This document shows positions 22,654 to 39,895 of a DNA stretch of 64,000 nucleotides, one piece after another. A model generated the notes under the pieces. It was not told where the DNA came from, made no database searches, and was given only the letters and a program-made list of their open reading frames with translations. The translations under genes and the position numbers were made by a program. Origin of the DNA: a virus; IMG/VR virus record IMGVR_UViG_3300027741_000027, positions 64,001 through 128,000 of that record; one strand, 5' to 3'. The first letter of the stretch is position 1; every line of letters begins with the position of its first letter.

Positions 22654-22667
22654 TTGTTTTCCTTTGT

Positions 22668-23310: not shown

Positions 23311-23551
23311 TCTTGTCCCCCTCTGATTTAATATTGAATGGAATGGTTGTCTCTGCATCTGTAATAAAACTAATCTCAGCCCATTCGATTGAATCCTCGT
23401 TATAGATTCCGACAATTCGGGCTACGTCATCGTTGTCGTCTGTGTGCTGCTCTACGGCCTCCTGAAAGCTGCTGTAAGGGCCGTACTGCCCTAGCGTATC
23501 GGGATTGTCAGAAGCAGGGCCATTGAGCAATAGAGCGTATACTTTCATCAT
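23303..23551 (-). CDS. hypothetical protein
   Basis: 82 aa, AGGAG RBS. Confidence 0.7.
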   Translation of the reverse strand: MMKVYALLLNGPASDNPDTLGQYGPYSSFQEAVEQHTDDNDDVARIVGIYNEDSIEWAEISFITDAETTIPFNIKSEGDKND

Positions 23552-23560
23552 TGTCTCCTA

Positions 23561-24157: not shown

Positions 24158-24237
24158 TGTAATCGCCTCCTATGGCGGTCTGTTTAGTCAGTAGATACAA
24201 CTTAGCAGTTTCGCTTTTGTCTTGGGTAAAGGTTTGG

Positions 24238-24423
24238 TTAAGACTTGCTCAACTTACGTTCGATGTACCTAACGAGAATATCAGCGTTAGCGATATCGCC
24301 CTCCATGTATTTAATCATCTCGTCGTTGTTGTCCTGAGTTTCTAGCGTATTTTGCAACTCCTCCGCATAACTATTTGCGATGCGGATAATTTCTTCTGCA
24401 ATATCATTCTCAATACTAATCAT
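24238..24423 (-). CDS. hypothetical protein
   Basis: Start refined to MISIE, ATGA overlap. Confidence 0.65.
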   Translation of the reverse strand: MISIENDIAEEIIRIANSYAEELQNTLETQDNNDEMIKYMEGDIANADILVRYIERKLSKS

Positions 24424-24803
24424 ACTTCCATCTCCTCGCAATTACAATCCCAATCCATATCCTCGCCGCAATCATCGCAAAGGCTATCATCCTCCTGTGG
24501 ATCAAAGTCAATCGTGAGGGTCTTGACCCTATTGCGATTGTCAAACTCTGCGTACACAGGGTACACACCGTCACCGTACAAGGTGCCACAGGCGATAGCA
24601 AGGTTCTCAAGCTGTCCGTAACCATTGCTACTCAGAGTTGCGTTGCAGCAACCATCGTAATTCATTTCGTATGATGAACTTGGCTTATTCTTAGTGCTAG
24701 TGTCAAATTCTTTTACAAAGTCTGCATTGATGTAGCAGGGGTCAATAATCATAATCTGGCCTGAGTCTACCGCGACCTGACCGATAAGTGTCTTTGTAGT
24801 CAT
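24420..24803 (-). CDS. DUF4241-like protein
   Basis: IGQVAVDSGQIMIIDPCY ... GTLYGDGVYPVYA; C-terminal CxxC...CxC. Confidence 0.7.
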   Translation of the reverse strand: MTTKTLIGQVAVDSGQIMIIDPCYINADFVKEFDTSTKNKPSSSYEMNYDGCCNATLSSNGYGQLENLAIACGTLYGDGVYPVYAEFDNRNRVKTLTIDFDPQEDDSLCDDCGEDMDWDCNCEEMEV

Positions 24804-24885
24804 TGTGTTTCTCCTTGTTTTGTGTTCAACAACTGAATACAACATAGCAAACCGTTTCACCGCTTGGGTAAAGACTTGGCAAAAC

Positions 24886-25194
24886 CTACGTTCCCCGAAT
24901 GGTGGCACCCTTTAGAGGCCAACCCTGACACACCTTCACAGTGACATTCTTTCCAACTGGATTATTTGCTGTAAAAGTAAACAGGACTGTATCACCCTTG
25001 CCGCAACCCTTGAATCCAACAAATATAGAATCGCGGTCAATAAGTTTTACATTAGTAAATCCATTGGTCACAAGGGTATTCTCTGCCACCCTCTGATCTG
25101 CAAACTGTCCAAACGCACAACCCGCAAACAAAACAAAAACAATAGCTACGAGGGTTCCAACCCATGTATATTTATCTTTGATATTTCTTTTCAT
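24886..25194 (-). CDS. membrane-anchored protein
   Basis: N-terminal hydrophobic helix; GC.KGD and VC.GW motifs. Confidence 0.7.
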   Translation of the reverse strand: MKRNIKDKYTWVGTLVAIVFVLFAGCAFGQFADQRVAENTLVTNGFTNVKLIDRDSIFVGFKGCGKGDTVLFTFTANNPVGKNVTVKVCQGWPLKGATIRGT

Positions 25195-25619
25195 TAGTAA
25201 AGGTGTCCTGATCTAGAGAATGGGTCTTGCATGATCTTAGCTCGCATCTTCTCAAGATCAGCAAGGTCGTTGTGAGAGCGTTCTGCCCTGTGATTAGTCA
25301 GTTGGTCTTGGATATAGCGCAGCTTGGACACGGTATGCGGCCTAGCGTCAGTGGAATACCTATCGGGGACGCTCACGGTCATGCGAGGGTCACGGATAAC
25401 AGACTCAACCCGTTCAGACCACTCCTGTTCCTCCTGAGACTTCTTATTGGCCTTAGCAGCGTGAGCCGCTTGGATTCCAGTGATGGTAACAGGGGCAGAA
25501 GTGCCTGTGATTACTTTTTCTTCTGTATGTTCGGGACAGTTGAGAGGTAAACGACCGCGCTGTGCGGCTCTCTGCCACTCATGGTTCCCTGCTTGGCAAT
25601 GCAATGTTTTCATAGTCAT
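25194..25619 (-). CDS. hypothetical protein with N-terminal Zn site
   Basis: C-QAGNH...C-PEH; own promoter at 25626. Confidence 0.7.
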   Translation of the reverse strand: MTMKTLHCQAGNHEWQRAAQRGRLPLNCPEHTEEKVITGTSAPVTITGIQAAHAAKANKKSQEEQEWSERVESVIRDPRMTVSVPDRYSTDARPHTVSKLRYIQDQLTNHRAERSHNDLADLEKMRAKIMQDPFSRSGHLY

Positions 25620-25754
25620 AAGTTTACCTTAGCACACTTGATTACTTTTTAAGTAAAGACTTAGTAAAGGAAGGGAGGACGCAGCGGGGGAGTATTGTCT
25701 TTTATATCCGAAGCCAATGGGGACGGGCATTGGCTGGAGTCCTCAATATATTAC

Positions 25755-26741
25755 TTAAGCGTTAAGGACGAGTTCAAAGCCCCTCTGCTTAAGTGCGTTG
25801 TCATCGAAGCTACGCGCCATTTGTGAGCCACGCTTAGTCATCTTGCGACCGTAATCGGCATACTCTGCGATTGCGTTAGCTGCGCACCACTTGCTGCCCG
25901 GTGCGTTGCCTGTAGTGTCGCCATTGACGCCTTCGCCCCTGTAGATCGCCATGATTGCATTCTTTGCAACTGAGCGATTAGTTACAGCACGATCACCCAT
26001 GCTGCCCTCAACAGGGTAAAGCTCATCAAGAACAGAGCGCAGACGGCCCTCTGAAAAAGAAGTCAGAGCCAACTGATCGCCAAGATCCTTAAATTGCTTG
26101 TAATAGTCAATGGTAATACCCATGACGTTACGAGCCTCATGGAGCTTTGCATTAATATTACCTGTGTGACGTACAGTGTAGGTGCGCTTACCCTGCTTGG
26201 CCCTGCTTACAGCCCAACCAAGAGTGTTTGCGCAAACAATACGAATTGGGCTAACAGACACAAGGCAAGCAGACTTACCATCGTGAGCATTAGCAATAAA
26301 TACATATTGCCCAACATCGTCACCTGCAACCTGAATGTAATCAGGCATCTTGCACAGTACCCATACCTTCTTACCTGCGTACAGGGAACCTGCGGTTTCG
26401 TACATCATATCTGTGCCAATAAGATTGTCCATGAAAGCAAATGCCTCATGGTTCTGAATTGGCTTGTAACGCTCTGTTACGACACCCATTACATCGTTGG
26501 TATCCTCACGGACGTTCATCCAAAGATTGTCTACCTTTGGGTACGTTGTGATGTTCTGACCACCGACGTTGGTAATAATTTCCTGATGAACAGGGCGCTG
26601 AATGATGTTCCAATCAAGACCTGAAAGCTCTAGTGCTTCCTTGATCGAACCGGGGTACTGATCTAGTACGTTACCAAGACCATGCCACGGCATTTCGCGT
26701 ACCGAGAACATCTGATCTTTGTCTGTAATTCCGTGTGCCAT
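25755..26741 (-). CDS. DUF932 / phage-plasmid LGT_TIGR03299-like protein
   Basis: MAH...MFSVREMPWHGLG, V..RYKPIQNHEAFAFMD, ETAGSL..GKKVW, NAHDG, SPIRIVCANTL, HTGN. Confidence 0.9.
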   Translation of the reverse strand: MAHGITDKDQMFSVREMPWHGLGNVLDQYPGSIKEALELSGLDWNIIQRPVHQEIITNVGGQNITTYPKVDNLWMNVREDTNDVMGVVTERYKPIQNHEAFAFMDNLIGTDMMYETAGSLYAGKKVWVLCKMPDYIQVAGDDVGQYVFIANAHDGKSACLVSVSPIRIVCANTLGWAVSRAKQGKRTYTVRHTGNINAKLHEARNVMGITIDYYKQFKDLGDQLALTSFSEGRLRSVLDELYPVEGSMGDRAVTNRSVAKNAIMAIYRGEGVNGDTTGNAPGSKWCAANAIAEYADYGRKMTKRGSQMARSFDDNALKQRGFELVLNA

Positions 26742-26896
26742 TTGCTGCTCCTTTGTTTTGTTGTATTCAACTGCTGAACAGGAGTGTAGCAGCTATTTCA
26801 TCATTGAAGAGGATTTTACCAAGATTTTACCTTTCGATATGATTCTGGCTTGATTAATCTTATTAAAATAAGAAAAACAAATCTTTAATTAATACA

Positions 26897-27052
26897 ATGA
26901 GTTTATTGAGAATAGACAACCAGCTAAAAAGAGTTTGGATTCTCAATAAAAGAATTCATCACGGAGCAGTTGGATTCGTTATGTTTGTTGCGGGAATTGC
27001 CTTAATGCAGAATGATTGGCACGATTTTCCGTGGCTTCGTGATAATGATTGA
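26897..27052 (+). CDS. 51 aa membrane protein (not in ORF track)
   Basis: MSLLRIDNQLKRVWILNKRIHHGAVGFVMFVAGIALMQNDWHDFPWLRDND; one TM helix. Confidence 0.55.
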   Translation: MSLLRIDNQLKRVWILNKRIHHGAVGFVMFVAGIALMQNDWHDFPWLRDND

Positions 27053-27080: not shown

Positions 27081-27509
27081 ATGTTATTAGCATCATTTTC
27101 AAGCTTTATGGGGCAACCCACCCCTCTCGTCATCTTTGAATTGATCGGCGCAAGCTTGGGATCTTATGCTCTTTTTTCTTATATTAAAAATATCAATGTA
27201 AAATCACAATTAACGGCAAAAGATACAATAATTGAAACCAATCAACAAACTATAGTATCATATGGAGAAAGATTAGATTCTTTGGAAGCTCAAGTCAAAG
27301 CCCTTGAGAAAGAAAACAATTTTCTTAAGACCGAATTAACTAATTGGGAAGAAAAATATAGGTCGCTTGAGAGCTTTGCCGCTCCGCAACTAGGCGAAAA
27401 ATTAATTAAGATGTTCGAACAACAAGAGGATTTGTTAAGTAAAATGGTGTGTGCATTAGAAGGAATCCAAGCTAAAATTGATTCCTTTGATGAACAGCAG
27501 AGTGAGTAA
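27081..27509 (+). CDS. membrane-anchored coiled-coil protein
   Basis: N-terminal TM segment then heptad-rich helix. Confidence 0.7.
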   Translation: MLLASFSSFMGQPTPLVIFELIGASLGSYALFSYIKNINVKSQLTAKDTIIETNQQTIVSYGERLDSLEAQVKALEKENNFLKTELTNWEEKYRSLESFAAPQLGEKLIKMFEQQEDLLSKMVCALEGIQAKIDSFDEQQSE

Positions 27510-30500
27510 TGTGGGATTTCTCTTTTCAAAAAGAATCTACGGATAATCATGATTGGACACCGGGGCGACTCGGTGCCGGATATATCCACGCTAGAACGAA
27601 TACCCCAGATTCGTTCAACCTGCTTGACTATAGCATACGCACATGGTCAGTAGGCCCAGACTATACAGATGACATTGACCGCGAGTACCAGCGTATTCGC
27701 GCTACTGATCTTGTCGTATTTAAGTTTTATATTACACCTACAGGTGGTATCCATGATCGTGGCGAAGGTTTTAAGAATAGAACCGGCAAGTCAGATCGTT
27801 CTGTAATTGCCTTTCTTCATCGTAAAGATAATCGTTTTTATGATGGACGCAATGATATTAAGACAAGCGCAACAGAAGATAGCGCACTGCACTTTAATCA
27901 TTATACAGGTGAGCCTTGCTACTGCGGATTTGGTCAGACGCATGGCTTAGAGAAGGAAGCCAATCTAAAGTATAAAGATATTAAACGAGGCGAGCTTCCA
28001 GAAAGCTATTATATGAATTTGGAAGGCGAAAATGGCAGGGTTTTTCGAGATTATGTTGTTGCTTTAGCCGAAGGCGGAGAGGTTGTAGGCGCTGGAGGTA
28101 ATACAGAAACAATAGAGGCGATTCCCGGAATCAAAAAAGTTATTCCGTGGATTGTCGGTCAAATGAAAAAAGGAACTCTTAATTTTGAATCGGGTCGTCG
28201 CAGCACCAGACCCGGTTTTGAGCGCGTTGTTTCTGAAAGAAACTTTGAATTTTGGTCGCCGGGACGCCTTGAAAATATTGCTGATTTATTTAATGCCGAA
28301 GGATCTCCTTATCAAAACAAACTTGTAGAGTGTCCAGAGTGCAAGGGAAAAGGAGAAAAGTGGAATACGGAGGTTGAAGCTCATGTAATGTGCGATAGAT
28401 GCATGGCACACAAAACTGCGCCAAGTAATCAAAAAGAAAACTTGATGGAGCTACCTCCAGACGAAATAGAAACAAGAGCTAAACGCCATCGAAATTGGGT
28501 TAGAGAGCGCGAAGCAGAAGCTATGCGCAAAGCCGATGTTAAAAATCAAGAGAGGGTTTACGAATTTACTGATCCAGACCATAAAGGCTGGTTTGTTACA
28601 AGACTTAATCCTGATGCTGGTGAGGCTAAACGAGTTGGCATTGAGCAAGGCAATTGTTTTCAACAGGAGGCGCAGGGCTATCAAAGGTCAGTTGCAGAGG
28701 GCGATTTAACTGTTTATGTATTAAGGGATCCTAAAGGGTTGGGTCATGCGCTATGGGCTTATGACCGCGATGGCAAAATCGCGGTTATGGAAGATTCTAG
28801 TAAACTTTATAACAAACGAGGCAAAGGTTGGGTAGGTTATGAAGTAAATAATCAATGGATTCGAAATATGATTAATGAAGCCAGTGATGCCTTAGGTATG
28901 CAAAAAAGATACCACAAAGATAATTATGATGTTCAACTGCCCGATGTTTTAACAGTAGATCAATTTTTAATTCAATTTTCAAACGATGATTCGGATGCAT
29001 ATAAACAATTAGTTGCAAAATCCGCAGATGAACAAGATATTGATGCGGATATGGTTTCGGAAGTTATAAAAGGTCGCGTTGATTGGAGGTCCATTGTCGG
29101 AGATTTGTTTAACGGGCCAACTACCGGAAACCTATCTGATGAACAAATCCCTTTTAATGATTTTATAAAAATTATGGATGGTGATGATCGTCTTATCTTT
29201 GCTTTGGATCAATTTGTTCAAGAAGCAGATAGAAGAATATCAGACCCAGAAGTAGAAGCCAATCAGCGCAATCAAGATCATGTAAATGATTATAAAGAGT
29301 GGAAAAAAATTCACACTCATCCATATACTGGCGAATATACACACCCAGAAACATGGGCAAATACCGCTTGGCACAAAAATGACTATGAAGAATTTCGTGA
29401 AAATTTCAGTGACAGTCCGTGGGCTTTTTCACTTCCTGATTGGGACACATTTATTTCTGAGTGGGGCGGCAAACTTCCAGCAAGTTTAAATCCTGCTTAT
29501 CGAAAAGGCAAACCTGTAATTGAAACCAGTGCTTGCAAAAAATGTGGTGGGTCTGGTCGTCTTATTACTCCAAATGGTTATGTCACTTGTGATAAATGTT
29601 GGGGTGATGGTGATGAACGAAATAAAGTTGTATTTCCTGATCCAGAATCAGATGCCGCCAAGTGTCAGTCCTGTGCAGGATCAGGCGTCGATCAAAGCAA
29701 AGTTCAACACCTTAAACAACAGGTTGAGCAATTAAAAGCAGATGGTGTTCATGACCGTCTTATTGTTGAATTTGAAAGAACTTTAGGAAGAAAAGATTTA
29801 CAAAATACTGATTTGCGTTGCGGGGCTTGTAATGGCACGGGCAAAAACAAGCCTGCCGCAAAGCTCATGGAAGAGGGTTCAGGGCAACTTAAATTTGGTA
29901 AAAAGAAACAAGACAATTACATTGTTCACTTTGATTCTATTACAGGCAAGCCATGCACCTGTGGATTTGGTGCATATAGGAATACCAATGAAGATGGCGA
30001 GCGATTCTTTAAAGAAGCATCAGGTTACAAGTTTAAAGAAATTACAAAGAGTCCGCCTTCATTTCTTCAAAATGAAGAGGGTCAAGCCCTCATTGAGTAT
30101 TTAACATCTCTTATTAAGGGTGTTGGCGAGAATCCTCAACCCATACTAGAGGGAGCTAAAACTCTTGTTCCGTGGATTGTTAAACAGTTCAAAGAAGGCA
30201 ATCTTACTTACAATCCAAACGAAGATCGATCATATTATACGGGCATTGAAAGAGTGTATCCGGGTGGAAATACACCAATTGATTTTGATGAGTTAGAGTT
30301 CATAGTTAATTATGTTAATGCAAGCGAAGGCCCATATAGACAAAATGTTGATTGGATGTCTTTTGATTTTATTGACCTAATACGTCAGGGGATGAGGCAT
30401 CATGAGTGGGTTAAAGAAAAAGAAAAAGACGCTAAGTTTTTAGCAAATCAAAACACCGTTTATACATTTGATGACTCTAACCTTGAATGGGTTGGTTGGA

Positions 30501-33500
30501 CTGTTGCTAAATTAGAAGACGAAAATGAAGTTGAGCAAGAAGGAATAAGGCAGGGCAATTGTATTAAAGACGAAGAAAGCGGTTATTTAGAAGCTTTTGA
30601 TAAAGGTTATCTTGATCTTTATGTATTGAGAGATACATTTGGAGGCAGTCATGCAATTTGGGGATATAACACAGACGATGGTTCTGTGGCATTTATGGAG
30701 GATTCTTCTAAAAGATATGCAGAAGAGAGAAGGCGAACTGACTTTCCTTACTACAAGGTAAATGTCCCATTTATTCGTGAAATGATTTCTACTGCTAATC
30801 AAGCACTTGGTTTAGATGATGACTACGATAATGGTAGTTATAATTATAATAGAGGTGAAACTGGTGAAGATTGTTACGATAGAAATAGGGAGCATTGGAG
30901 GCCAGAGCGGGAAGAAGAGGAAGAGGAGGAAGAGGAGGAAAAGGAAGCACTTGAAATTCAATTGTCAGATGTAACAAGTTTTGCAGAATACGAAGCTCAA
31001 TATGGCGAGGACAATAATTGTTGGGAGCTTGCAGCAAGGGAGGCACAAGATGAAGGTCTTATTATTGGCGATGATACACAGATTTATCCCGGCTCAATTC
31101 ATTGGGATGATATAGCCTATGAATACTTTAATACTCCAAGAGACTTTCAAACCAACTTAGATTTGTTGAACAAATGGGCCGCAGTTTTTCATAATCAATT
31201 TCAGATTGGAGATTTTTACGAAGAGTGTCAAAGGTATTTAGAAACAGCAGATCTTGATGAAGAAGACGATGCAGAAATACAGGCTTACCAAGAGTGGGTT
31301 AAATTACACACAAATCCGCTTACGGGTAAATTTCAAGATCCTAGAGGAATTTCGCCAAGTAATTTAGATAGATTAAGAAGGCAAGAAGAAGAAAACGTTT
31401 GGGGATTCTCTGTTCCAAGCGATGAAGATTTAGCATCATTTAACGGCATTCTTCCTGCGGGCTTAAATCCACAAAACAGAAGAGGCGAGCCATTACATAC
31501 AAAAATTCAATGCCTGTCTTGCGGTGGAGCTGGAGGAGATCCTAATACTGGCGCAACGTGTCGGGCCTGTAATGGAACGGGTATGATGCAGGCTAGAGCC
31601 ACAATGCCCGATTGGGAAACAAGATTGAAAAATCGGGGCGAGAACGGTGGAATTCCAAACCCCGCAGCAATGATTCATGAAGAGCCATCAGGTCAATTGT
31701 TTATGGCAAAGAAAAAGTGGGACATGACCCCTCTTAGTTTTACCGACCAATTGAAACTTCACTTATCAACGATTGAAGCTAAGGTTTCTCATGATCTTAG
31801 CTGGGTAGCTGGTGGTCGCGGTCGCGGCCTTATGCTCAATAGCGGTAAACTTATCACTTGGCCAGTGAACAAGAAAGGCGAGCCGCAGCATCCTGATATG
31901 TATGAATACCTTACAGGACACAAATTGCCTGAGACTCATTCCGTACATGATTTTACAGAAGGCATCCCATTTGATATTAATGAAGATGGATCGGTCAATT
32001 GGTTCTCTAAGGATACATCGCCTGATCTTATTGCTGATATCTCCAAGATTGATTATCGACTTAAAACTTCCGCAATTGATCCTTGTTGGAGAACGGGGGA
32101 ATGCGCAGCCTTTGCTCTTGCAGCACACGATTTAACAGGTTGGCCAATCTTTAAAATTGACGAAAGACCAAACGGTGGGGCGTGGCACTTTATGGTTCAG
32201 ACACCAAACGGCGACTTTTTAGATGGCGATGGAATTAGAAGAGGAGAGGAAATTTTAGCTGAGCATAGCGAGGCTGCCGAAGAACTTGCAAAGACCCATG
32301 ACATCTATCCTTCCAGCAGAGAAGAAGTAGTGGCTTATGGTTCAAATGTAATAGAGAAGGCAAAAGAAGCCACACCTATTATTCAAAACATGTTGAAATC
32401 TTCTAAAACTTATGAAGGGTTTGATGTTCATTTCCACCCTTACACGGGCGAGCCATGCACTTGCGCTTATGGTCAATCACCAAACAACAGACGCACAGCA
32501 TCACAGGCTGTTCGTAAAGTAAAGAATCAAGATCAGAAGCATATGCGCAGTGAAAAAGGTCAAGCCATTCTTGATTATCTACATAAACTTATTTCAGGTC
32601 ACGGTCTGAGTGAGCAAGGTGAATTCGGGCGAGGTCCGGCTCCCGGTCTTGAAGGCATGGTGCCATGGATTGTAAAACAAATCAAAACAGAAGACATTAA
32701 ACCGTTTACTTATGACGATGGAGAAGTGTATGGTCTTGGTCGCTTTTCAACTATGGAATTTAGCTCTGTTCAACAGGCGAAGATGGCACTTGCTGGTAAA
32801 CATGAATCATTGATTAGTGTTCAGCAGAATTACGAATCAGATTATTGGAAGACAAGGTTAGAAAGCTTTGGGTATCAAGTAGATGATACCTACGGAGCAG
32901 TTGATAACCCTGACATTGATGCTGTAGTAATTAACTGCGATATTGTTGGTCCTAATGACCTTATTGATCTTTTAAAGAAGATTCCTGAGGGTACGCCCAC
33001 TTGGATTGGTGGATCAGATGCAATATTGGAACAAATCGGTGCAACGGAAGACGCAGAAGAATATTTGAAGGACTTACTCAAAAGAAACAAAATTAATTCT
33101 CGCAAAATTTACATCACGACGACAATGTATAGAGCAGTGCAAGCAATAGACGACACTGTTAGAGAAGAAAACCCAGACCTATCTAATTTTGAATTACCAG
33201 ATAAGTATTACGCCAAGATCAAACCAGAGGATTGGGCAAATTGGTTTAATGCATCCAACGCACCTGCTCGTCGCAGCAGGACAGAAAAGGAAGTCAGGGC
33301 CGCATTTAATAGGTCAGAGAAATACATTCAGTATCGCATCGAACGGGGAAACAAAACAATTAATGGTGATATTAATTCTCCTATGTATAACGATGATTTG
33401 TTAGGACTTATGGCCGATCAACTAAAAGTTGATGAACGCGATCTTCGTGAGAATATGATGACTACATATAGAGAAATGCAGGCCGATAATGCCATAGATA

Positions 33501-35023
33501 CAATCGATGGTACCGTGCCTGAAGAGAACATGAAGGACTTTCTTAATAGATTAACTAAAAAGTTTGAGATTAATCTCAATGATATGTCAGTGGCGCAAGT
33601 TTCAGACGCTGTACATAGGCATAAAAGATACCTTTATGAATTACAAACTATTGAAGGCCTTAAGAAACAATTTGCTGATAAATTAAACGACCCAGAAAGC
33701 GTTGTTTATAGAGTCCAAGATCCATTCTTTAAAGGTTGGACCGTTCATCAATTAAAATCCATGGAAGACGCCGGACTTGAAAGTGAAGTATTAGGTCATT
33801 GCATTGGCAGCGATGAACAAAAGTATGCACAGGGCATTGAAAATGATGTTATTGCTGCTTATTCTTTAAGAGATGAAAACGGCATTCCTAAGTTTACATG
33901 GCATTATAACCCTGATGGATCATTTGCTCACGCTCAGGGTAAGTCTAAAGACTCCTACGCTAGATTTAGAGATATTGTAACAGAATTTAATGAGGCAATG
34001 GGACTTGATGATGCAAATGGTGGCGAAGGCTCGGAAGATAATTCTTGGTTCCAAGATTTTGAAGACGAAACATTACACACACTTCAAATGCCAGACCCAG
34101 AATCAATAGAAGAATATATGGCGCAAATAGACCATCTTGAAGAGGCGGCTGAGGAGTATGCAGATCAACTTGGGGAAACATTAGCAGACGATTGCGATAT
34201 TGAACGCGGAGACCCAGAATGGAATCTTATTGCAGACGAATTTTTTGAAGAGTCGCATATAAATGTTGGAACGTATCAACTTATTAATGCTTTGATGAGT
34301 GAATTTGCGCCACCTTATCATTTGCGAGATTTTGTCACGGCAGCAAATAAAATATTTGATAGAAACAAAGAAGGATTTATCAGAGATGGGGAATTGATGG
34401 GACTTGAAGAAAGATCAGATGATGATTTCTTTGACACCTATCCAATATGTAGATTTTATGATACATGGCGCAGAATGCACACCAATCCAAAAACAAATAA
34501 GGTGGAAAAACCAATTACTCTTTGGCGAGAAGAAGCATACATGCAAAGATTTAAACCAGATGAAGCGCCAGAAATTTCATATCAAGAATTACCATACAAC
34601 AGAATTGGCATTCACGATGAAGATATCGCTCCGGACATGCCAAATTATTGGGATGCAAGCGGCGGCGTAAGAATGATGCCTGCAAGTATGAACCCTCAAT
34701 ACGCGCCTAACGCTGTAACATGCGCAAAATGCAATGGTCGTGGTTATATAGGTTCATTAAATTGTGATAAGTGTAATACCAGAGGTTGGTACATTGAAGA
34801 AAACCCAGTCGAAAGAGAGCCGGGTGCAGAATGTCAAAATTGTGGTGGCTCAGGCAGAATTCAAATTACTGATGACCGTGGTGTTGTAACGGAAAACTGC
34901 GCAAATTGTAATGGTACAGGAAAAACAGCATCTTTAACAATAAAAGAAAAGGCTGCCGCTTGGGACCAGCCACTAACTAAATTAACCTATGCACAGGCTA
35001 AATATATAAATGGAAAACTTTAA
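27509..35023 (+). CDS. 2504 aa modular polyprotein: three repeat units each with a PcfJ-like domain and CxxCxGxG Zn fingers, plus a papain-like domain
   Basis: Three HFxxxTGxPCxCxxG motifs, three VPWIVxQxK, three GWxVxxL...ExxxxGNC/HC...YxLRD, three HTxPxT, three xPAxxNP, many CxxCxGxG. Confidence 0.8.
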   Translation: MWDFSFQKESTDNHDWTPGRLGAGYIHARTNTPDSFNLLDYSIRTWSVGPDYTDDIDREYQRIRATDLVVFKFYITPTGGIHDRGEGFKNRTGKSDRSVIAFLHRKDNRFYDGRNDIKTSATEDSALHFNHYTGEPCYCGFGQTHGLEKEANLKYKDIKRGELPESYYMNLEGENGRVFRDYVVALAEGGEVVGAGGNTETIEAIPGIKKVIPWIVGQMKKGTLNFESGRRSTRPGFERVVSERNFEFWSPGRLENIADLFNAEGSPYQNKLVECPECKGKGEKWNTEVEAHVMCDRCMAHKTAPSNQKENLMELPPDEIETRAKRHRNWVREREAEAMRKADVKNQERVYEFTDPDHKGWFVTRLNPDAGEAKRVGIEQGNCFQQEAQGYQRSVAEGDLTVYVLRDPKGLGHALWAYDRDGKIAVMEDSSKLYNKRGKGWVGYEVNNQWIRNMINEASDALGMQKRYHKDNYDVQLPDVLTVDQFLIQFSNDDSDAYKQLVAKSADEQDIDADMVSEVIKGRVDWRSIVGDLFNGPTTGNLSDEQIPFNDFIKIMDGDDRLIFALDQFVQEADRRISDPEVEANQRNQDHVNDYKEWKKIHTHPYTGEYTHPETWANTAWHKNDYEEFRENFSDSPWAFSLPDWDTFISEWGGKLPASLNPAYRKGKPVIETSACKKCGGSGRLITPNGYVTCDKCWGDGDERNKVVFPDPESDAAKCQSCAGSGVDQSKVQHLKQQVEQLKADGVHDRLIVEFERTLGRKDLQNTDLRCGACNGTGKNKPAAKLMEEGSGQLKFGKKKQDNYIVHFDSITGKPCTCGFGAYRNTNEDGERFFKEASGYKFKEITKSPPSFLQNEEGQALIEYLTSLIKGVGENPQPILEGAKTLVPWIVKQFKEGNLTYNPNEDRSYYTGIERVYPGGNTPIDFDELEFIVNYVNASEGPYRQNVDWMSFDFIDLIRQGMRHHEWVKEKEKDAKFLANQNTVYTFDDSNLEWVGWTVAKLEDENEVEQEGIRQGNCIKDEESGYLEAFDKGYLDLYVLRDTFGGSHAIWGYNTDDGSVAFMEDSSKRYAEERRRTDFPYYKVNVPFIREMISTANQALGLDDDYDNGSYNYNRGETGEDCYDRNREHWRPEREEEEEEEEEEKEALEIQLSDVTSFAEYEAQYGEDNNCWELAAREAQDEGLIIGDDTQIYPGSIHWDDIAYEYFNTPRDFQTNLDLLNKWAAVFHNQFQIGDFYEECQRYLETADLDEEDDAEIQAYQEWVKLHTNPLTGKFQDPRGISPSNLDRLRRQEEENVWGFSVPSDEDLASFNGILPAGLNPQNRRGEPLHTKIQCLSCGGAGGDPNTGATCRACNGTGMMQARATMPDWETRLKNRGENGGIPNPAAMIHEEPSGQLFMAKKKWDMTPLSFTDQLKLHLSTIEAKVSHDLSWVAGGRGRGLMLNSGKLITWPVNKKGEPQHPDMYEYLTGHKLPETHSVHDFTEGIPFDINEDGSVNWFSKDTSPDLIADISKIDYRLKTSAIDPCWRTGECAAFALAAHDLTGWPIFKIDERPNGGAWHFMVQTPNGDFLDGDGIRRGEEILAEHSEAAEELAKTHDIYPSSREEVVAYGSNVIEKAKEATPIIQNMLKSSKTYEGFDVHFHPYTGEPCTCAYGQSPNNRRTASQAVRKVKNQDQKHMRSEKGQAILDYLHKLISGHGLSEQGEFGRGPAPGLEGMVPWIVKQIKTEDIKPFTYDDGEVYGLGRFSTMEFSSVQQAKMALAGKHESLISVQQNYESDYWKTRLESFGYQVDDTYGAVDNPDIDAVVINCDIVGPNDLIDLLKKIPEGTPTWIGGSDAILEQIGATEDAEEYLKDLLKRNKINSRKIYITTTMYRAVQAIDDTVREENPDLSNFELPDKYYAKIKPEDWANWFNASNAPARRSRTEKEVRAAFNRSEKYIQYRIERGNKTINGDINSPMYNDDLLGLMADQLKVDERDLRENMMTTYREMQADNAIDTIDGTVPEENMKDFLNRLTKKFEINLNDMSVAQVSDAVHRHKRYLYELQTIEGLKKQFADKLNDPESVVYRVQDPFFKGWTVHQLKSMEDAGLESEVLGHCIGSDEQKYAQGIENDVIAAYSLRDENGIPKFTWHYNPDGSFAHAQGKSKDSYARFRDIVTEFNEAMGLDDANGGEGSEDNSWFQDFEDETLHTLQMPDPESIEEYMAQIDHLEEAAEEYADQLGETLADDCDIERGDPEWNLIADEFFEESHINVGTYQLINALMSEFAPPYHLRDFVTAANKIFDRNKEGFIRDGELMGLEERSDDDFFDTYPICRFYDTWRRMHTNPKTNKVEKPITLWREEAYMQRFKPDEAPEISYQELPYNRIGIHDEDIAPDMPNYWDASGGVRMMPASMNPQYAPNAVTCAKCNGRGYIGSLNCDKCNTRGWYIEENPVEREPGAECQNCGGSGRIQITDDRGVVTENCANCNGTGKTASLTIKEKAAAWDQPLTKLTYAQAKYINGKL

Positions 35024-35152: not shown

Positions 35153-36652
35153 CTAAGTTCCAAACGGTCTTGGTTTCGTATCAGGATCGCGGCGCTCTGT
35201 TCCCTCATCAGGTTTATTTTTTGTTTTTGGTGGAGCAATATCAGTCATATCTAAAAAACATCTGACATGCGTAGGTGTTTTTGGACCACCTGACAATGGG
35301 AAGATTGCTTCAACGTATGCAAGTGCAGGATTTGCGTTACGTTCTTGAACATAAACCTCGCCAACTGATCCCGCTGGCACCTCTACAAACTTACCTACGC
35401 CGATAGCATTACTTGGCCCTTCAGTTTCACCAATAACAGATTTAGCTAGTGTAATTGTGTCACCGCTTTTATAATTATACCAACCGGGTGTGGCAGCCAT
35501 CCTATGACCATTATAAGTATTTGACCAAATGCTACCAAATGGATTTCTTTCACTTGGTTGGCGAGCATGAGGAACAGACACAGTACCGGGAGGCGATGCT
35601 TGACCGTAAGGTGATTCACCGGGCCTAGTATACTGCTGCTGTTGACGTTGCTGCTCTTTAAGTTGTTCTAATGGCGGAGTTTGTATCTTTTTCCGTGGCT
35701 CAAATCCTAAGAATCTTTCTTCTTCTGGAGTTAATTGAGTCTCAGGACGATCATATTGTTGAGGCGCAAGTGGGCCAAGCCTTTGCTCAAGCAGTTCATC
35801 AGGAGACACAGCACCAACATCTTCTGGTTTAAATGGTGTAAGCTGTCGAATACCACGCGCACCCTCAGGAACAGAGGGAACGATACCACCGGGTGTGCCA
35901 CCGGGTCCAACTTGGCCGGGTGGTAGAGCAAATGGGCTAGGCTCACCAACAGGGCCAACTGGTGCCTGTGGTGGAAGCTCAGTAACCATTGCCTCTTCAA
36001 CCTGTTGCACTGGTAGCATCTTAGATAAAAAGTAAAGTGCTAGAACGTGAGAGCATGGGCGACCTTCATAAATCTTCCATTGACGAGTACGTTGCCAAGC
36101 AAACTGCTGCCACTTGCATTCACAATGCCATCCTGTAATGACGGGCGAAGCAGGGTCTTGGCGCATGATGGTTGATTCATAAGTTCCATGATCGCCAATA
36201 ACAGTACCAACAACATGATCTTGGTCATTAATTATAACTGTTACATGGCCTGTATTGACTAGTCGCTTTGCTTTCTCAACAAGGTCGTTCCAGTTATCTT
36301 GGCGCTCAATAACGCGCTCGCGCTGTCTAGCATTAAGTCCTTCATCTTCATCAGCAAAACCTCTGCTTGGTTGCTCTTGCTCAGTTCTTTCTTTATCAAG
36401 AATTTCAGCAGGGTCGCCTTCAGCAAAGTGAAAGGTTGCCCGCTTGTATCCAAAACCCTCTAGTTGGGCAGCTACAATCTTTTCAGCAAGGATCTTATCA
36501 AGGGTGCTTCCCTCTTTAGCCATGACTACAGCATCGCCGGGTTTACCCTCCCACCATTCAACAATTGAATTGCCGATCTTCTGAGTGCGAGCAGGTAGGG
36601 GTTTAACAGAGGCAATAACTTCGCGGATGTATGAAACGTCTTTATTCATCAC
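35153..36652 (-). CDS. SWIM Zn-finger-containing modular protein
   Basis: WHCECKW...GRPCSHVLALY (CxC...CxH); Pro/Gly-rich linker. Confidence 0.7.
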   Translation of the reverse strand: MMNKDVSYIREVIASVKPLPARTQKIGNSIVEWWEGKPGDAVVMAKEGSTLDKILAEKIVAAQLEGFGYKRATFHFAEGDPAEILDKERTEQEQPSRGFADEDEGLNARQRERVIERQDNWNDLVEKAKRLVNTGHVTVIINDQDHVVGTVIGDHGTYESTIMRQDPASPVITGWHCECKWQQFAWQRTRQWKIYEGRPCSHVLALYFLSKMLPVQQVEEAMVTELPPQAPVGPVGEPSPFALPPGQVGPGGTPGGIVPSVPEGARGIRQLTPFKPEDVGAVSPDELLEQRLGPLAPQQYDRPETQLTPEEERFLGFEPRKKIQTPPLEQLKEQQRQQQQYTRPGESPYGQASPPGTVSVPHARQPSERNPFGSIWSNTYNGHRMAATPGWYNYKSGDTITLAKSVIGETEGPSNAIGVGKFVEVPAGSVGEVYVQERNANPALAYVEAIFPLSGGPKTPTHVRCFLDMTDIAPPKTKNKPDEGTERRDPDTKPRPFGT

Positions 36653-37230
36653 TGATTAACTGTTCGTTTCCTGTAGTAAGTCAAGCCCTTGCTTTTAAGC
36701 AGGCTACGATCCCTTGTAATTGTTTTATTTAGCAAACGTGCAATATTCCTCGGTTTATAATTAATAACCTCTACAGACACGTTTACGTTGCCCCAACGAG
36801 TTGGTTCGTTTCTTGAGTAATCGTGGTTGTGAATATGACCATGCACATGAATCTTTAGCTCATCCTCGGACTTAAACAGCTTAGGATAATGGTCAAAGCT
36901 AATCTCATACTGCCTGTATTCCATTTTAAATGGTTTAACAACTTCAAAGCCTAGCTTGTCGTAATCATATTTACGTTTATCATGATTGCCAAGAATAATA
37001 TATTTTTTGCCAGTGAGTTTTGGAGCGACCTCTGACTTGAAATAATGAAAGTATTCATCGCCTCCCATCATCAGATCGCCCAAGTGAAGAATTACATCGT
37101 TCTCTTTTACCTTTTTGCGCCAATGAGCAATCATTAGTTCTTCATGATACTTGGGCCTGTCGCAATACTTAACAATGTTTTTATGACCGAAGTGAGTATC
37201 GGATATTACATAAAAAGGAAATTTAATCAA
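36649..37230 (-). CDS. calcineurin-like metallophosphoesterase
   Basis: SDTHFGH, LHLGD, GNHD, HYP, HGHIH. Confidence 0.9.
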   Translation of the reverse strand: MIKFPFYVISDTHFGHKNIVKYCDRPKYHEELMIAHWRKKVKENDVILHLGDLMMGGDEYFHYFKSEVAPKLTGKKYIILGNHDKRKYDYDKLGFEVVKPFKMEYRQYEISFDHYPKLFKSEDELKIHVHGHIHNHDYSRNEPTRWGNVNVSVEVINYKPRNIARLLNKTITRDRSLLKSKGLTYYRKRTVNQ

Positions 37231-39895
37231 TGTTATATTGTTTCATGATGCCATGAATCTGATCAATTAGGCCGCGCTCTTCAATCATCTTATACGAAAT
37301 GTTAGATGGGGAGAAGTCGCCCTTGCCCTGTTCCATGTCATTCTTTCTTCTTCTATGAAGTTGATTATAGTATTGAACTGCTTTGAATGGTTCGTAGCGA
37401 ATAAGTCCCTCCATCTTATCAGCATTCTCAAGAGCAATCGTATGAACTTCATTCATTTCTTTAATTACATTGCGAGAGCGTTCCTTCTCTGGAGGAACAA
37501 TCCAAGTGTCAGTTGACAGATCATATGCTGACCTAAGACCGGGCTTGTAAAGATCGGTTTTCTCAAAACCCTCTGCAACTACATAGCATTGTAGTGGGTG
37601 ACCGGTACCCGGAACAGGAATGTTATCGCACTCGTCCATCATAATAGCAATCATCTCTGCCCTTGACCACTCAGGAAACTTATCGGCATTAACAAACAGT
37701 GAAACATCAAAGTCTGATGCGGGTGAATACTGATACGTTGTAAGGCTACCTGTAACAATTAGCTCAAGCCAATCTTCCATGTGAGTATAACCATTGTGAT
37801 CTAATGCTTCAATAATAAAATTAGTTACCCAGCTATTGATCTCTGGGCGCAAAACGGGGTTAGGGGCATAAGCGTCATCCCAAACCTTTGGATCAAGCTG
37901 ATCGCTAACTTCATCAAGGATGTTAGCTTTCCTTCTAAACCATTTAAGGAAGCGCTTACCAAATCGACCTAATTGATTATCATAATTTTCAGGATCGCTC
38001 CATGGAACAATTTTGTCTGCTTTTGGACCGAGGGTGCTGTTTTCCCATTGCTCTGTAGCAATTTCGTTCCATACATTGCGTATTTGTTCTCCTTCTGTTT
38101 CTCCGGGAACCTCAATGCCTTCACGCTCTCGCATTTCAATACGCCTTTGCACATCTCTCTCTTGATCTTCCGTTGGAGCAATAGGACCAAATAACTTATT
38201 TTGATCAAGATTGGGTTTAGCTGGATCAGGTTCATTAGGATCAATATAGTTGTGACCCAGAAGCTGATCTGCATAACGAAACTCAGGAACTCTTGCCCAT
38301 TGCTGAGCTTCTGAAAGGTAGCTGTTAGGATCGTAATAACGAGCTTCAAACTCTGGATAAAGTTGTTCTTTAATATAATCATTTACTTCAGCTACAAAAT
38401 CATCGTAATACGATCTGTCTCGATACATCATGCGGTCAGGAGTAAATTCATCTGCCTTTTTTGCAAGCTCGGGTAATTTATCAATTGAACCAGTTGTTGA
38501 TCCCCATTGCCTTAAACTTTTAAATGCATAGTCAATAATTTCTTCCCAATTATCACGACGAATGAATTCTCTATCGTATTTAGTGCAATAGCCTTCGCCA
38601 TCGGGATCATGCAAGTATCCATGTTCTTGATCATCTGGGAAATAATCTTCCCAATTGCGGGTAGGTGTAACTTTTTCATGTTGATATTCAGAGTTGCCGT
38701 AATCAATGTTCTCTTCGTCAAAGTCTTGTGGATTAATCCAAATTTGTAACTCTTGCACGGTTTTTGGCGCTGGAATCCAAATTTCTTGAACGGTGCGCTC
38801 ATAACCCGGAGGATTATCCATGCTAATCAACCAGTCGCCAACCATCTCACGATACTTAGGCACAAGCATTTTATTTTCTTTGCCTTGAATCTGCACAACA
38901 TTGCCACCATCAGGGGTAACTCTTGTCAAATGATTAGCGAGAGTCTCATCTGATAACTCATCCCTACTACGACCTTCAAGAAAAGCGCGAACGACTTGCA
39001 CTAGTGGTTTATACTCAAGGTTATTGGCTTCGCAAAGGTTAGTTAGAAATTTTCCAAATTCCTCATTGCTAACGCCAGTGTCTTTATAAGCTTTAATTGC
39101 CGCCCAATCATGACCAACAAAATTAATTAATTTAATGTCTCGTTTAAGTTCTTTAAGAACTGCCTCATTACGTTTGGCTGTTTCTAAAGCATTAGGATCA
39201 TGCCTGTCGGGTTCGTCAGTATATTCGTCATCTTCCCATTGATAATCATATCCTACTTCGACAGGATCAATTTCAATGGTTCCATGAGGTTGATTCTTAG
39301 GATCACGCAAAGAATAAATAAGCGTGTGGCCATTTTGAATTTGACCGCCATATCCGCCAACGCAATGACCCATAGCTTCACCCTCTTGTTTAGCCTCGTT
39401 AGCGTTAGTGATTTGTCGAATAGTCCAACCGTCATCAAGCTTGGCTACAACGGTGCCACCCTCTGTTTGAGCCTCATCCATCTTTGATGCAAGCTCGGCA
39501 TCCCATTCTGCCATTTTAGAAATAACATCTTCATAAGTAAGTTGCATAATATCCACGCCACGACGAGTGGGTGAATTAGAGGCAAACCAGTCAGCTAAAT
39601 GAGGAAGAAAAGCAGGATAAGCATTAAGCTCCTCGGGCTGGATTCGGCCCTTCTTTAATTCTCTCCAAATCCACGGAGCTAAAGGGTCAAGTTTTTCATT
39701 ACCTTCAACCTTCTTTTCAAGCCATTGAAATGCCATTTGCCCTTCTTCGCTTTTGAAGAATTTATCTTCGCGTTCACGAAGCCAATCGAGCTTTGCCCCT
39801 GCTTCTCTTTGAAGAGGTTGCGGAGTATATGGATCTTGGAACTTTCCAAATCCACAACGGCATGGTTCGCCGTTTGCGTTAAGATGAGGTTTCAT
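37223..39895 (-). CDS. PcfJ-like domain fused to a Pol-beta-type nucleotidyltransferase
   Basis: EGEAMGHCVGGY...IYSLRDPKNQPHGTIEI; C-terminal VTGSLTTYQYSPASDFDVSL (GS...DxD). Confidence 0.8.
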   Translation of the reverse strand: MKPHLNANGEPCRCGFGKFQDPYTPQPLQREAGAKLDWLREREDKFFKSEEGQMAFQWLEKKVEGNEKLDPLAPWIWRELKKGRIQPEELNAYPAFLPHLADWFASNSPTRRGVDIMQLTYEDVISKMAEWDAELASKMDEAQTEGGTVVAKLDDGWTIRQITNANEAKQEGEAMGHCVGGYGGQIQNGHTLIYSLRDPKNQPHGTIEIDPVEVGYDYQWEDDEYTDEPDRHDPNALETAKRNEAVLKELKRDIKLINFVGHDWAAIKAYKDTGVSNEEFGKFLTNLCEANNLEYKPLVQVVRAFLEGRSRDELSDETLANHLTRVTPDGGNVVQIQGKENKMLVPKYREMVGDWLISMDNPPGYERTVQEIWIPAPKTVQELQIWINPQDFDEENIDYGNSEYQHEKVTPTRNWEDYFPDDQEHGYLHDPDGEGYCTKYDREFIRRDNWEEIIDYAFKSLRQWGSTTGSIDKLPELAKKADEFTPDRMMYRDRSYYDDFVAEVNDYIKEQLYPEFEARYYDPNSYLSEAQQWARVPEFRYADQLLGHNYIDPNEPDPAKPNLDQNKLFGPIAPTEDQERDVQRRIEMREREGIEVPGETEGEQIRNVWNEIATEQWENSTLGPKADKIVPWSDPENYDNQLGRFGKRFLKWFRRKANILDEVSDQLDPKVWDDAYAPNPVLRPEINSWVTNFIIEALDHNGYTHMEDWLELIVTGSLTTYQYSPASDFDVSLFVNADKFPEWSRAEMIAIMMDECDNIPVPGTGHPLQCYVVAEGFEKTDLYKPGLRSAYDLSTDTWIVPPEKERSRNVIKEMNEVHTIALENADKMEGLIRYEPFKAVQYYNQLHRRRKNDMEQGKGDFSPSNISYKMIEERGLIDQIHGIMKQYNID

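Follow-up and report, generated by a model that had tools for sequence, protein, structure and literature searches.

The giant gene and its setting

The window analysed here is a 64,000-nucleotide stretch of DNA (positions 64,001 to 128,000 of IMG/VR record IMGVR_UViG_3300027741_000027) from an uncultured phage, whose record spans 136 kb and whose portal is 40% identical to that of cluster C mycobacteriophages. Its plus strand carries a single uninterrupted ORF of 2504 aa (P0001; 27509..35023), the open frame reported by the first-pass annotation. An M-W-D/N-F opening is common to the relatives of this protein and thus settles the start codon. The protein is composed of two kinds of recurrent, unannotated building blocks and a variable slot: three PcfJ-like units are accompanied by an N-domain, a W-domain, a 111-aa cassette, and a 32-aa tail, all of which lie outside any unit. 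Only PcfJ and zinc fingers are recognisable by Pfam among these many domains. Full-length relatives, found on contigs of 101-138 kb, are 985-2619 aa long and have one to three units.

The large size and internal repeats, together with the myovirus-like relatives of the phage, could indicate a virion structural protein (a tape measure, a fibre, or an internal scaffold) whose repeats would set length or valency only. However, the spread in length and unit number among the relatives is unlike a ruler in genomes of similar size, the modules bear enzyme-like conserved polar motifs, and no structurally annotated PHROG is matched. Furthermore, the giant gene lies outside the structural block, on the strand opposite to the terminase-portal block and 11 kb from the portal gene. 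A structural role is consequently regarded as highly improbable.

A candidate sigma-70-like promoter (TTTACC, 17 nt, TATGAT; 26815..26843, plus strand) lies upstream of the operon that would include the giant gene. It contains a TTTRC-N6-TTTAC box, which occurs 17 times in the window against 0.55 expected. At the same position, alignment of the relatives reveals TTGACT-17-TATGAA or TATCAT; in the two relatives checked, the exact box is missing from the plus strand ahead of the operon. The same promoter type heads the small-gene cluster of the phage. The first gene of the operon, a 51-aa ORF with one hydrophobic helix (26897..27052, plus strand), is conserved at the DNA level, and a gene of 50-51 aa is called at this place in relatives. 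In the 142-aa ORF that follows (27081..27509, plus strand), a hydrophobic helix at the N-terminus accompanies a coiled coil; its matches are limited to weak coiled-coil ones. The TAA of this ORF shares one base with the ATG of the giant gene, and in every relative a gene of 133-171 aa abuts the giant gene. Both small ORFs are predicted to encode membrane proteins.

Beyond the giant gene, the minus strand encodes an 890-aa protein (P0002; 37223..39895) in which a canonical PcfJ module, identified by Pfam, is followed by a C-terminal domain (aa 657-886). A G-S-x10-D-x-D pattern is legible in this domain; no nucleotidyltransferase was matched there in Pfam, NCBIfam, or PDB sequences, and the only PHROG match is the unnamed phrog_36119 (E 7e-9). 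Synteny with a metallophosphoesterase gene and this fusion gene is kept in the relatives. Other neighbours encode a DUF932 protein, a SWIM-like protein of 499 aa, two metallophosphoesterases in all, and a dNMP kinase. A literature search returned nothing on DUF932 in leading regions.

Three PcfJ units of two types

The three units start at nt 27890, 29927, and 32429 (aa 128, 807, and 1641). Each opens with H-F-x3-T-G-x-P-C-x-C and continues in the same order, with this His/Cys/Cys N-motif followed by a helical part, an alpha/beta PcfJ core, a helical bundle, and zinc hairpins. In unit 1 (aa 128-806; 27890..29926, plus strand), a zinc ribbon is inserted in the helical part, the core lies at about nt 28547-28921, and the end consists of four CxxCxGxG hairpins and an EEGSGQL..KKK junction. 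Unit 2 (aa 807-1403; 29927..31717, plus strand) has its core at about nt 30452-30826, followed by an acidic linker, the helical bundle, two CxxCxGxG hairpins, and an EEPSGQL..KKK junction, so that EExSGQLxxxKKK stands after units 1 and 2. In unit 3 (aa 1641-2472; 32429..34924, plus strand), the stretch from the PWIV helix to the core (about nt 33692-34018) contains an insert of about 185 aa (nt 32678-33232), and the helical bundle and zinc hairpins come after the core.

The first-pass annotation had described these units as serial homologues, with a fourth copy on the other strand, and both descriptions hold. BLASTP aligns unit 1 with unit 2 at E 3.3e-63 (28% identity over 635 aa), unit 1 with unit 3 at E 4.5e-22, and unit 2 with unit 3 at E 2.6e-20; the N-terminus of the 890-aa protein aligns with unit 2 at E 4.6e-15. 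All four alignments are far above chance. All of the motifs originally listed fall in register in a four-way alignment, including the EAN/EAS/TAS segment, EGxxG...PWIV, HTxPxT, xPAxxNP, and the CxxCxGxG fingers. The proposed loose likeness of the unit 3 insert to cell-wall-binding repeat 2 did not stand, since neither the insert nor its five orthologues matched CW_binding_2 in Pfam at E <= 1.

The assignment of the core to PcfJ (PF14284, named after PcfJ of the Enterococcus faecalis plasmid pCF10) was also upheld. The Pfam profile scores 30.1 bits in the 2504-aa protein (cut-off 25), its strongest segment (aa 2014-2134) lying in unit 3, and 41.7 bits (E 1.3e-10) in the 890-aa protein. Units 1 and 2 alone yield no stretch with this profile; that they are PcfJ-like follows from their BLASTP homology to unit 3 and the 890-aa protein and from fold matches, the model of unit 2 having 21 matches in BFVD at E <= 1e-3 to phage PcfJ-like proteins. 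Each unit's core is thus homologous to PF14284, but here the domain sits inside a much larger conserved module that also comprises the N-motif, the helical part, the bundle, and the hairpins, and there are three copies per chain.

These copies are of two types. Residues conserved across the family comprise E-G..M-G-H-C, a Tyr, S-L-R-D, P-H, and Q-G-K. Unit 3 and the 890-aa protein carry both the near-invariant His and QGK, whereas in units 1 and 2 G-N-C and M-E-D-S replace G-H-C and Q-G-K. The same division is seen in 13 relatives, in which every early unit is of the GNC type without QGK and every last unit is of the GHC type with QGK. Across 157 family proteins, His is found 169 times at this position and Asn 30 times. 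Loss of the His and QGK from units 1 and 2 does not by itself prove a loss of activity.

The module occurs in 2126 representative clusters of metagenomic proteins (50% identity), nearly all of them unannotated. Many of the proteins reach giant size, 2,000-3,500 residues, and contain multiple copies of it; Pfam names almost nothing in them besides PcfJ. In a search of 50,697 cultured-phage records with tblastn, neither the 2504-aa protein nor a short family member gave a match at E <= 1e-5. The family had been presented as undescribed, and a full-text literature search, which retrieved passing mentions of PcfJ only and no paper on its function, is in accord with this. Because the PcfJ family has no known function, membership in it explains no mechanism.

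Some indication of what the core might do comes from its modelled fold. AF2 models were made for two parts of unit 2, aa 807-1180 (pLDDT 78) and aa 1144-1400 (pLDDT 82.5). With the core model, the best 50 rows of a wide VIA search all belong to the GNAT superfamily. The best match, HAT1 (1bob; rmsd 3.1, 106 aligned), has a borderline Z of 8.2, a Z of about 8 being, by the tool's own note, typical of the best chance-level matches. In a second VIA look, the 50 rows shown were all acetyltransferase folds, with 176 chains at Z >= 5, and the best Foldseek matches were SpeG and MYST (E 0.08-0.6). As modelled, the core would superpose on the N-terminal two-thirds of GNAT, HAT1, and MYST domains (Z 5.3-8.2), an overlap of only about 100-110 residues. 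By secondary-structure order only, the family's Q-G-K would be placed at the end of the strand that bears the GNAT pyrophosphate-binding loop, that is, at the place corresponding to GNAT motif A (Q/R-x-x-G-x-G/A). However, the core model shows no evident counterpart to the GNATs' C-terminal strand-helix-strand arm, and the PcfJ His-Cys is located in a loop joining the first two helices, a site that does not correspond to a GNAT catalytic position. The PcfJ profile matched nothing among PDB sequences, GNATs included. The relationship between PcfJ and GNATs is therefore best described as a borderline likeness of modelled folds only. When the second-half model (aa 1144-1400) was compared with the PDB, it retrieved assorted helical repeats (best Z 6.3), none of them informative, and the helical bundle matches no known fold. 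Only the zinc hairpin found counterparts, in anti-TRAP and DnaJ; it superposes on anti-TRAP with an rmsd of 1.0 over 31 residues.

The CxxCxGxG fingers are real, as the first reading had it: Pfam DnaJ_CXXCXGXG matches the 2504-aa protein at E 2.3e-15 (57 bits, cut-off 32.7), identifying zinc hairpins of the DnaJ/anti-TRAP type (PF00684, PF15777), and the four hairpins at the end of unit 1 are as in DnaJ. In contrast to DnaJ (Hsp40), the protein has no J domain and no C-terminal domain by Pfam, and TIGR02349 (DnaJ), with a cut-off of 377 bits, reaches only 23.8. The hairpins are small borrowed modules.

These hairpins bear on the idea that the protein is a nucleic-acid transaction factor, in which the units and hairpins would bind DNA or RNA for genome protection, repair, or the start of replication. 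The hairpins are numerous, PcfJ itself comes from a conjugative plasmid, and the neighbourhood, with its DUF932, SWIM-like, and metallophosphoesterase genes, its nucleotidyltransferase-like fusion, its dNMP kinase, and its conserved synteny, is in keeping with such a function. However, the CxxCxGxG hairpins of DnaJ and anti-TRAP bind proteins, not DNA, and the 2504 residues yielded no nucleic-acid-binding or nuclease domain. In addition, there are strongly acidic stretches within the units, and the variability of the cassette suits conflict more than housekeeping. Even with the further observation that, in CPR bacteria, the sequences upstream of DGR variable regions are listed as having both PcfJ-like and nucleotidyltransferase motifs (PMC5758913), this explanation is distinctly unlikely.

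WPG domains, the cassette slot, and the junctions

The N-domain (aa 1-127; 27509..27889, plus strand), which starts with M-W-D-F, and the W-domain (aa 1404-1521; 31718..32071, plus strand), which ends with K-I-D-Y-R-L-K-T-S, are two copies of a domain designated WPG. Against a WPG profile built from 68 domains of 29 other proteins, hhalign gives the N-domain a probability of 96.6% (E 5.3e-10) and the W-domain one of 98.8% (E 7.5e-17). Direct comparison of the N-domain and W-domain profiles is not significant, and so their kinship is visible only through the 68 intermediate domains. On these profile matches, the two regions are assigned to one undescribed repeat-domain family. The N-domain has no Pfam match, and an Atlas search with it returned unnamed clusters only. 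At BLAST sensitivity both domains are single-copy in this genome, and consequently they are not a tag common to other proteins of the phage. In comparisons with distant relatives, identity is 62-85% for the N-domain, 63-71% for the W-domain, and 42-75% for the C-terminal tail (aa 2473-2504; 34925..35020, plus strand), which contains A-W-D-Q-P.

Between the W-domain and unit 3 lies a slot, occupied here by a cassette with Cys and His residues (aa 1522-1632; 32072..32404, plus strand). Near-identical relatives have 0, 111, or 161 aa of unrelated sequence at this site; across the relatives the content ranges from 8 to 443 aa, and in the closest ones the flanks are 97-100% identical. No homologue of similar length was found for the cassette, and its comparison with the N-terminus of a 650-aa protein is not significant (E 0.38). 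Weak hints (Pfam E 0.12; Atlas 0.90) suggest that it is possibly YunG-like. Relatives and family members carry, as cargo, DUF5661, a 2H phosphoesterase/Acb1-like domain, cREC_REC, Fic, and Lar, and there is among them a weak Tpt1/KptA-like match (E 0.05). The 2504-aa protein itself contains no recognised anti-defence domain, its cassette being an orphan. As judged by comparison among the relatives, the PcfJ units are the conserved framework in this clade, and effector-like variation sits in the cassette region, aa 1521-1641.

The borders between modules have features that could point to packaged cargo. In this scenario, late synthesis of the polyprotein would be followed by its loading into the capsid, with a phage protease cutting it at conserved junctions (K-T/V/I-S, GQL..AKK, and W-D-x) and the products being ejected with the DNA. 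It would then qualify as a polyvalent protein as strictly defined by Iyer et al. 2017 (PMC5512222), where such a model has already been set out. Each relative has 1-4 instances of the motif [KR][TVI]S[AKSN] (shuffle mean 0.3-0.5), and with a single exception these fall at module borders. W-[NDEHRQ]-F marks where family proteins begin and end: in 11 of them it lies within 12 aa of the C-terminus, versus about 1.7 expected. Furthermore, the N-domain, W-domain, and tail are far better conserved than the units, as would be the case for parts that dock to conserved machinery, and the portal gene is not distant. However, the numbers are low and come from relatives that are not independent of one another, and the junction motifs may be just conserved domain ends kept by recombination. 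The location off the terminase-portal block on the other strand and a promoter of the type found at the small-gene cluster also argue against late cargo. No protease domain was found in the protein or its neighbours by Pfam or NCBIfam, and Pfam, PHROG, and NCBIfam gave no match in either to a zincin-like metallopeptidase, another peptidase, MuF, or a T4SS link; a portal-associated domain is likewise missing in and beside the giant gene. Packaged cargo is possible but doubtful.

Proposed role and relation to polyvalent proteins

Taken together, these findings favour a different hypothesis, to which a probability of roughly 45% is assigned. In this model, the 2504-aa protein is a modular protein with a working unit 3 and a strain-specific cassette, and it takes part in host takeover or counter-defence within the newly infected cell. 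Unit 3 would be the working copy because it has kept the near-invariant Glu, His-Cys, Tyr, LRD, and QGK. Given the GNAT/HAT-like topology of the modelled core, the binding of a small group, or its transfer onto a host or phage macromolecule, would be the most likely activity. Units 1 and 2 would be old conserved paralogues that, with the zinc hairpins, may act as binding or scaffold modules, and the cassette would provide the strain-specific activity. Host RNA polymerase would read the gene from the putative sigma-70-like promoter, along with the small-gene cluster and the two predicted membrane proteins, and for this reason the protein would act inside the newly infected cell; the promoter-like motif is the only sign of "early" expression.

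Such a protein would resemble the polyvalent proteins of phages and conjugative elements, such as DarB of phage P1 (Iyer, Burroughs, Anand, de Souza, and Aravind 2017; PMC5512222), which by analogy suggests a part in takeover or counter-defence. Like them, it is a giant multi-domain protein of a mobile element with variable domain content, and domains listed in that work recur in members of the present family (2H phosphoesterase and, as a weak match, an ADP-ribosyltransferase-fold enzyme). PcfJ, DnaJ fingers, and DUF932 go unmentioned there. In addition, the chain described here is mostly repeats of one module rather than disparate enzymes, and its candidate promoter suggests synthesis after entry rather than injection.

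The features new to this analysis are the GNAT-type matches of the core, the two unit types, the WPG repeat domain, the cassette slot, and the promoter/operon setting. A bolder proposal, considered rather unlikely, is that PcfJ is a diverged GNAT-fold His-Cys transferase and that the giants are plug-in arrays of counter-defence effectors, in which WPG and the W-x-F/K-T-S motifs would delimit exchanged, perhaps cleaved, modules, and units 1 and 2 would be pseudo-enzyme decoys or adaptors for an active unit 3. If true, this would be a natural case of tandem arrays of enzyme and pseudo-enzyme.

The protein belongs to an extensive and unstudied family of giant modular phage proteins, which probably act on the host. 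Its grammar is readable, consisting of two kinds of domain, a set of fixed junctions, and a single variable slot, and the cassette site with its near-identical flanks is where new activities should be sought in related phages. Should the core prove to be a transferase and the cassettes effectors, the family would constitute a large untapped source of host-manipulation and counter-defence activities.

Repeated units and conserved domains of the giant protein

A single open frame at 27509-35023 on the plus strand encodes the giant protein P0001 (2504 aa). In the first-pass annotation it had been proposed that this protein carries three serial PcfJ-type units and that a fourth lies in the 890-aa PcfJ fusion protein encoded at 37223-39895 on the minus strand, and both proposals are borne out. 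The claimed unit starts correspond to residues 128, 807, and 1641, and each unit opens with H-F-x3-T-G-x-P-C-x-C. By BLASTP, unit 1 is homologous to unit 2 (E 3.3e-63, 28% over 635 aa) and to unit 3 (E 4.5e-22), unit 2 is homologous to unit 3 (E 2.6e-20), and residues 1-205 of the 890-aa protein match unit 2 (E 4.6e-15); every short motif that had been listed falls into register in the four-way alignment. The core is indeed PcfJ-like, with Pfam family PF14284 scoring above its 25-bit cut-off in both P0001 (30.1 bits, the best stretch lying within unit 3) and the 890-aa protein (41.7 bits), and Pfam also reports the DnaJ-type CxxCxGxG fingers of P0001 (E 2.3e-15). The suggested likeness of the unit 3 insert to cell-wall-binding repeat 2 was not supported, as neither this insert nor five orthologous ones matched that repeat or any other Pfam family.

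A tblastn search with P0001 of 50,697 cultured phage records gave no match. Full-length relatives of 1599-2619 aa, encoded on 101-138 kb contigs, came out of a word-indexed search, and an exhaustive profile search added smaller ones, the shortest of 985 aa. All 13 of the relatives that were examined have, in their early unit or units, G-N-C at the position of the family's His-Cys and no Q-G-K, whereas the last unit has G-H-C and keeps Q-G-K; unit 3 and the 890-aa protein are of this latter, canonical type. An alignment of 38 family sequences has C212, L234, and R235 as invariant residues and W83, G190, W191, E205, H211, Y220, S233, D236, and G259 as near-invariant ones, and in 157 family proteins the position before the invariant Cys is occupied by His in 169 instances and by Asn in 30. 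Because G-N-C without Q-G-K has been kept in the early units across relatives, units 1 and 2 are taken to be an old, maintained paralogue class that has lost two of the most conserved motifs. The 985-aa relative consists of the N-terminal domain, the W-domain (see below), one canonical unit, and the tail, with nothing else; since its only unit is canonical, the G-N-C units are additions.

The most conserved parts of P0001 lie outside the units and had not been set apart in the first-pass annotation; they emerged from the comparison with relatives. Residues 1-127 (the N-domain) are 62-85% identical and residues 1404-1521 (the W-domain) 63-71% identical in relatives that share only 30-44% identity over the units. 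A direct comparison of these two segments was not significant; against a profile of 68 similar segments from 29 other family proteins, however, the first scored with Prob 96.6% (E 5.3e-10) and the second with Prob 98.8% (E 7.5e-17). This "WPG" domain, for which Pfam gave no match, reads W-x-P-G-x-x-G-K-G, T-W, P-H-H, and an F-x-I-x-P-x-G strand, with D-P-R-L at its end, and up to ten copies are present in other giants of 2,000-3,500 aa.

Two short motifs mark the junctions. [KR][TVI]S[AKSN] occurs 1-4 times per relative (shuffle mean, 0.3-0.5), all but one occurrence being at module borders. W-[NDEHRQ]-F stands ahead of WPG domains across the wider family, within 12 residues of the C-terminus in 11 proteins (about 1.7 expected), and within the first 12 residues of 15 proteins, 12 of them from the clade of P0001; P0001 itself has M-W-D-F at its start, W-D-M after unit 2, and W-D-Q in its tail. 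Because these counts are small and the proteins are related to one another, the motifs are treated as real borders and at most as candidate cleavage sites. Many giants of the PcfJ family have W-N/E/Q/D-F a few residues from their C-terminus, and further ones start with the motif; this pattern, drawn from P0018, P0025, P0035, P0064, P0065, P0092, P0116, P0118, P0143, and others, suggests that genes are split and fused exactly there.

Between the W-domain end (..R-L-K-T-S) and unit 3 lies a slot of variable content. In P0001 it holds 119 aa, an 8-aa linker included; in two close relatives, 169 aa of unrelated sequence; in a third, the 8-aa linker alone; and in other relatives, up to 443 aa. Over the 200 residues on each side, the two closest relatives share 97-100% identity with P0001; the slot is a fixed site of recent cassette exchange. 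The P0001 cassette (residues 1522-1632) is an orphan with only weak YunG hints. DUF5661 is found among the cassettes of relatives. Another cassette, starting R-S-L-Y-H-G-T, occupies residues 1037-1235 of the relative P0010 (L003:13109-13705) and residues 1-200 of P0045, another family protein, which it opens right behind M..W-D-F. Its best matches among PDB sequences are RNA 2'-phosphotransferases (Tpt1/KptA, ADP-ribosyltransferase fold) at E 0.05, which can serve as a lead only.

Wider family and predicted folds

At E <= 1e-3, a profile of the four units matched 2126 representative clusters, of which 77 remained at E <= 1e-30. The part common to these matches runs from the N-motif through the PcfJ core; many proteins show up to six matched stretches, and many others are single-module proteins with the N-motif directly behind the start Met. 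Among the 30 top matches, Pfam found PcfJ in 21, single cases of cREC_REC, DUF5661, DnaJ fingers, Lar, and Fic, and almost nothing else; one more family case has a 2H phosphoesterase/Acb1-like domain. All members looked up are unnamed metagenomic proteins, and a full-text literature search returned no paper on the function of PcfJ. One relative, P0011 (L004:10001-14800), can be translated from its locus only with TAG decoded as Gln, and its called gene extends 175 bases into the following one; the gene call probably runs through a true TAG stop and is not evidence of recoding.

The model of unit 2 (residues 807-1180) has a mean pLDDT of 78, with the core above 90 and the N-motif low. When the model was compared with predicted viral structures, PcfJ-like proteins from numerous phages matched at E-values of 5e-6 to 1e-3, those of Listeria LP-064, Brochothrix A9, Bacillus Shbh1, and Acinetobacter ME3 among them. 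When the core (model residues ~176-310) was compared with solved structures, the matches listed were acetyltransferase folds only. Foldseek itself gave a best E-value of 0.08; when its candidates were re-scored, 176 chains reached Z >= 5, the best 50 of the 176 all being acetyltransferase folds, and in a search independent of Foldseek the best 50 matches listed all belonged to the GNAT superfamily. The best of the latter is HAT1 (1bob; rmsd 3.1, 106 aligned) at Z 8.2, a level near 8 being, by the search tool's own caution, typical of models without a true match. Because of this, and because a profile search of PDB sequences with the PcfJ core returned no GNAT, the predicted core is called GNAT-like in topology and at most a candidate homologue. 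The second half of the unit (residues 1144-1400, pLDDT 82.5) is modelled as a beta-hairpin, a helical bundle, and a zinc hairpin. The zinc hairpin superposes on anti-TRAP (rmsd 1.0 over 31 residues) and alone has a counterpart in the structure search, the helical bundle having none.

Gene neighbourhood, expression, and candidate role

The source record, an IMG/VR virus of 136,021 bp of which the window spans bases 64001-128000, is 85% complete by CheckV. The window encodes a portal (phrog_2833, E 1e-156) that shares about 40% identity with the portals of cluster C mycobacteriophages and of 135-kb Gordonia phages, a large terminase, endolysin-like genes, a dNMP kinase, and five tRNAs (Met, Ile(tat), Met, Asn, and Leu(caa); 60331-61453, minus strand). 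A 1450-aa ORF at 2344-6696 (minus strand) has a weak T5orf172/endonuclease-like match near residues 845-912 and, by BLASTP, no module in common with P0001.

Gene order around the giant gene is conserved in all relatives read. The giant gene is preceded by an extended series of small genes on the minus strand and by a DUF932 gene; the latter (here 25755-26741, minus strand, E 1.4e-48) is divergent from the giant operon in the window and in all of these relatives. The plus-strand set of the relatives comprises a 50-51 aa ORF, a coiled-coil ORF of 133-171 aa, and the giant gene. In the window, the 51-aa ORF has one hydrophobic helix, the 142-aa ORF combines a hydrophobic helix at the N-terminus with a coiled coil, and the TAA stop of the latter overlaps the giant ATG by one base. 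Next, on the minus strand of the relatives, come a protein of ~490 aa, a metallophosphoesterase, the PcfJ fusion protein (~800-890 aa), and a protein of ~650 aa.

Such neighbours suggest a role for P0001 in DNA or RNA transactions. Besides DUF932, they include a 499-aa protein (35153-36652, minus strand), conserved in all relatives as the next gene after the giant one, with a SWIM-type C-x-C...C-x-H zinc finger (Pfam E 0.006), a long Pro/Gln-rich linker after it, and matches to phrog_30974 and phrog_2940 (E 5e-17). Two calcineurin-like metallophosphoesterases (36649-37230 and 44749-46029, both minus strand) are also present; the first runs over the stop of the PcfJ fusion gene and keeps its synteny with that gene in relatives. 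The fusion itself may be nucleotidyltransferase-like, as the first-pass annotation had it; a G-S-x10-D-x-D pattern is readable in its C-terminal domain, whose sole match is an unnamed PHROG. None of the domains detected in P0001, however, supports such a role. Adjoining the fusion gene, and conserved in relatives, is a 650-aa protein (39879-41831, minus strand) with a weak YunG match in its N-terminal 125 aa (E 0.0025) and one C2H2-like finger (E 0.004); by eye, two segments may resemble the T-W ... H-H core of the WPG domain, and a stretch near residues 470-540 may resemble GNAT motif A.

The window contains 17 copies of the box TTTRC-N6-TTTAC (0.55 expected). Fourteen of the boxes are minus-strand copies scattered through the small genes at 13-26 kb; two are on the plus strand near 12.9 kb, and one, at 26815 on the plus strand, precedes TATGAT by 17 nt in front of the 51-aa ORF. 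Most of the 17 stand upstream of small minus-strand genes. The boxes (12880-26830) resemble a class of phage promoter whose -35 element is of the TTTAC type; in relatives the box likewise precedes small genes and DUF932. At the giant-operon promoter position, the exact box is absent from relatives, which have TTGACT, 17 nt, and TATGAA or TATCAT instead. Judged by sequence, the promoter-like elements ahead of the giant operon and the small genes are of sigma-70 type; from this we infer that host RNA polymerase reads the operon along with the small-gene cluster, and the operon would most likely be expressed early.

The main rival explanation is a strict polyvalent model in which P0001 would be made late, packaged, cut at its junctions, and ejected with the DNA. 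The junction motifs and the strong conservation of the terminal and WPG domains are in its favor, but the promoter type, the gene position, and the failure to find any peptidase or head-associated domain argue against it. On the best-supported reading, P0001 counts among the giant, modular proteins known as polyvalent (PMC5512222, a paper in which the PcfJ domain is not mentioned) and would be made in the infected cell. In such a protein, the one canonical PcfJ unit would be the active part, the two degenerate units and the zinc hairpins would serve as binding or scaffold parts, and the cassette would be the strain-specific part.
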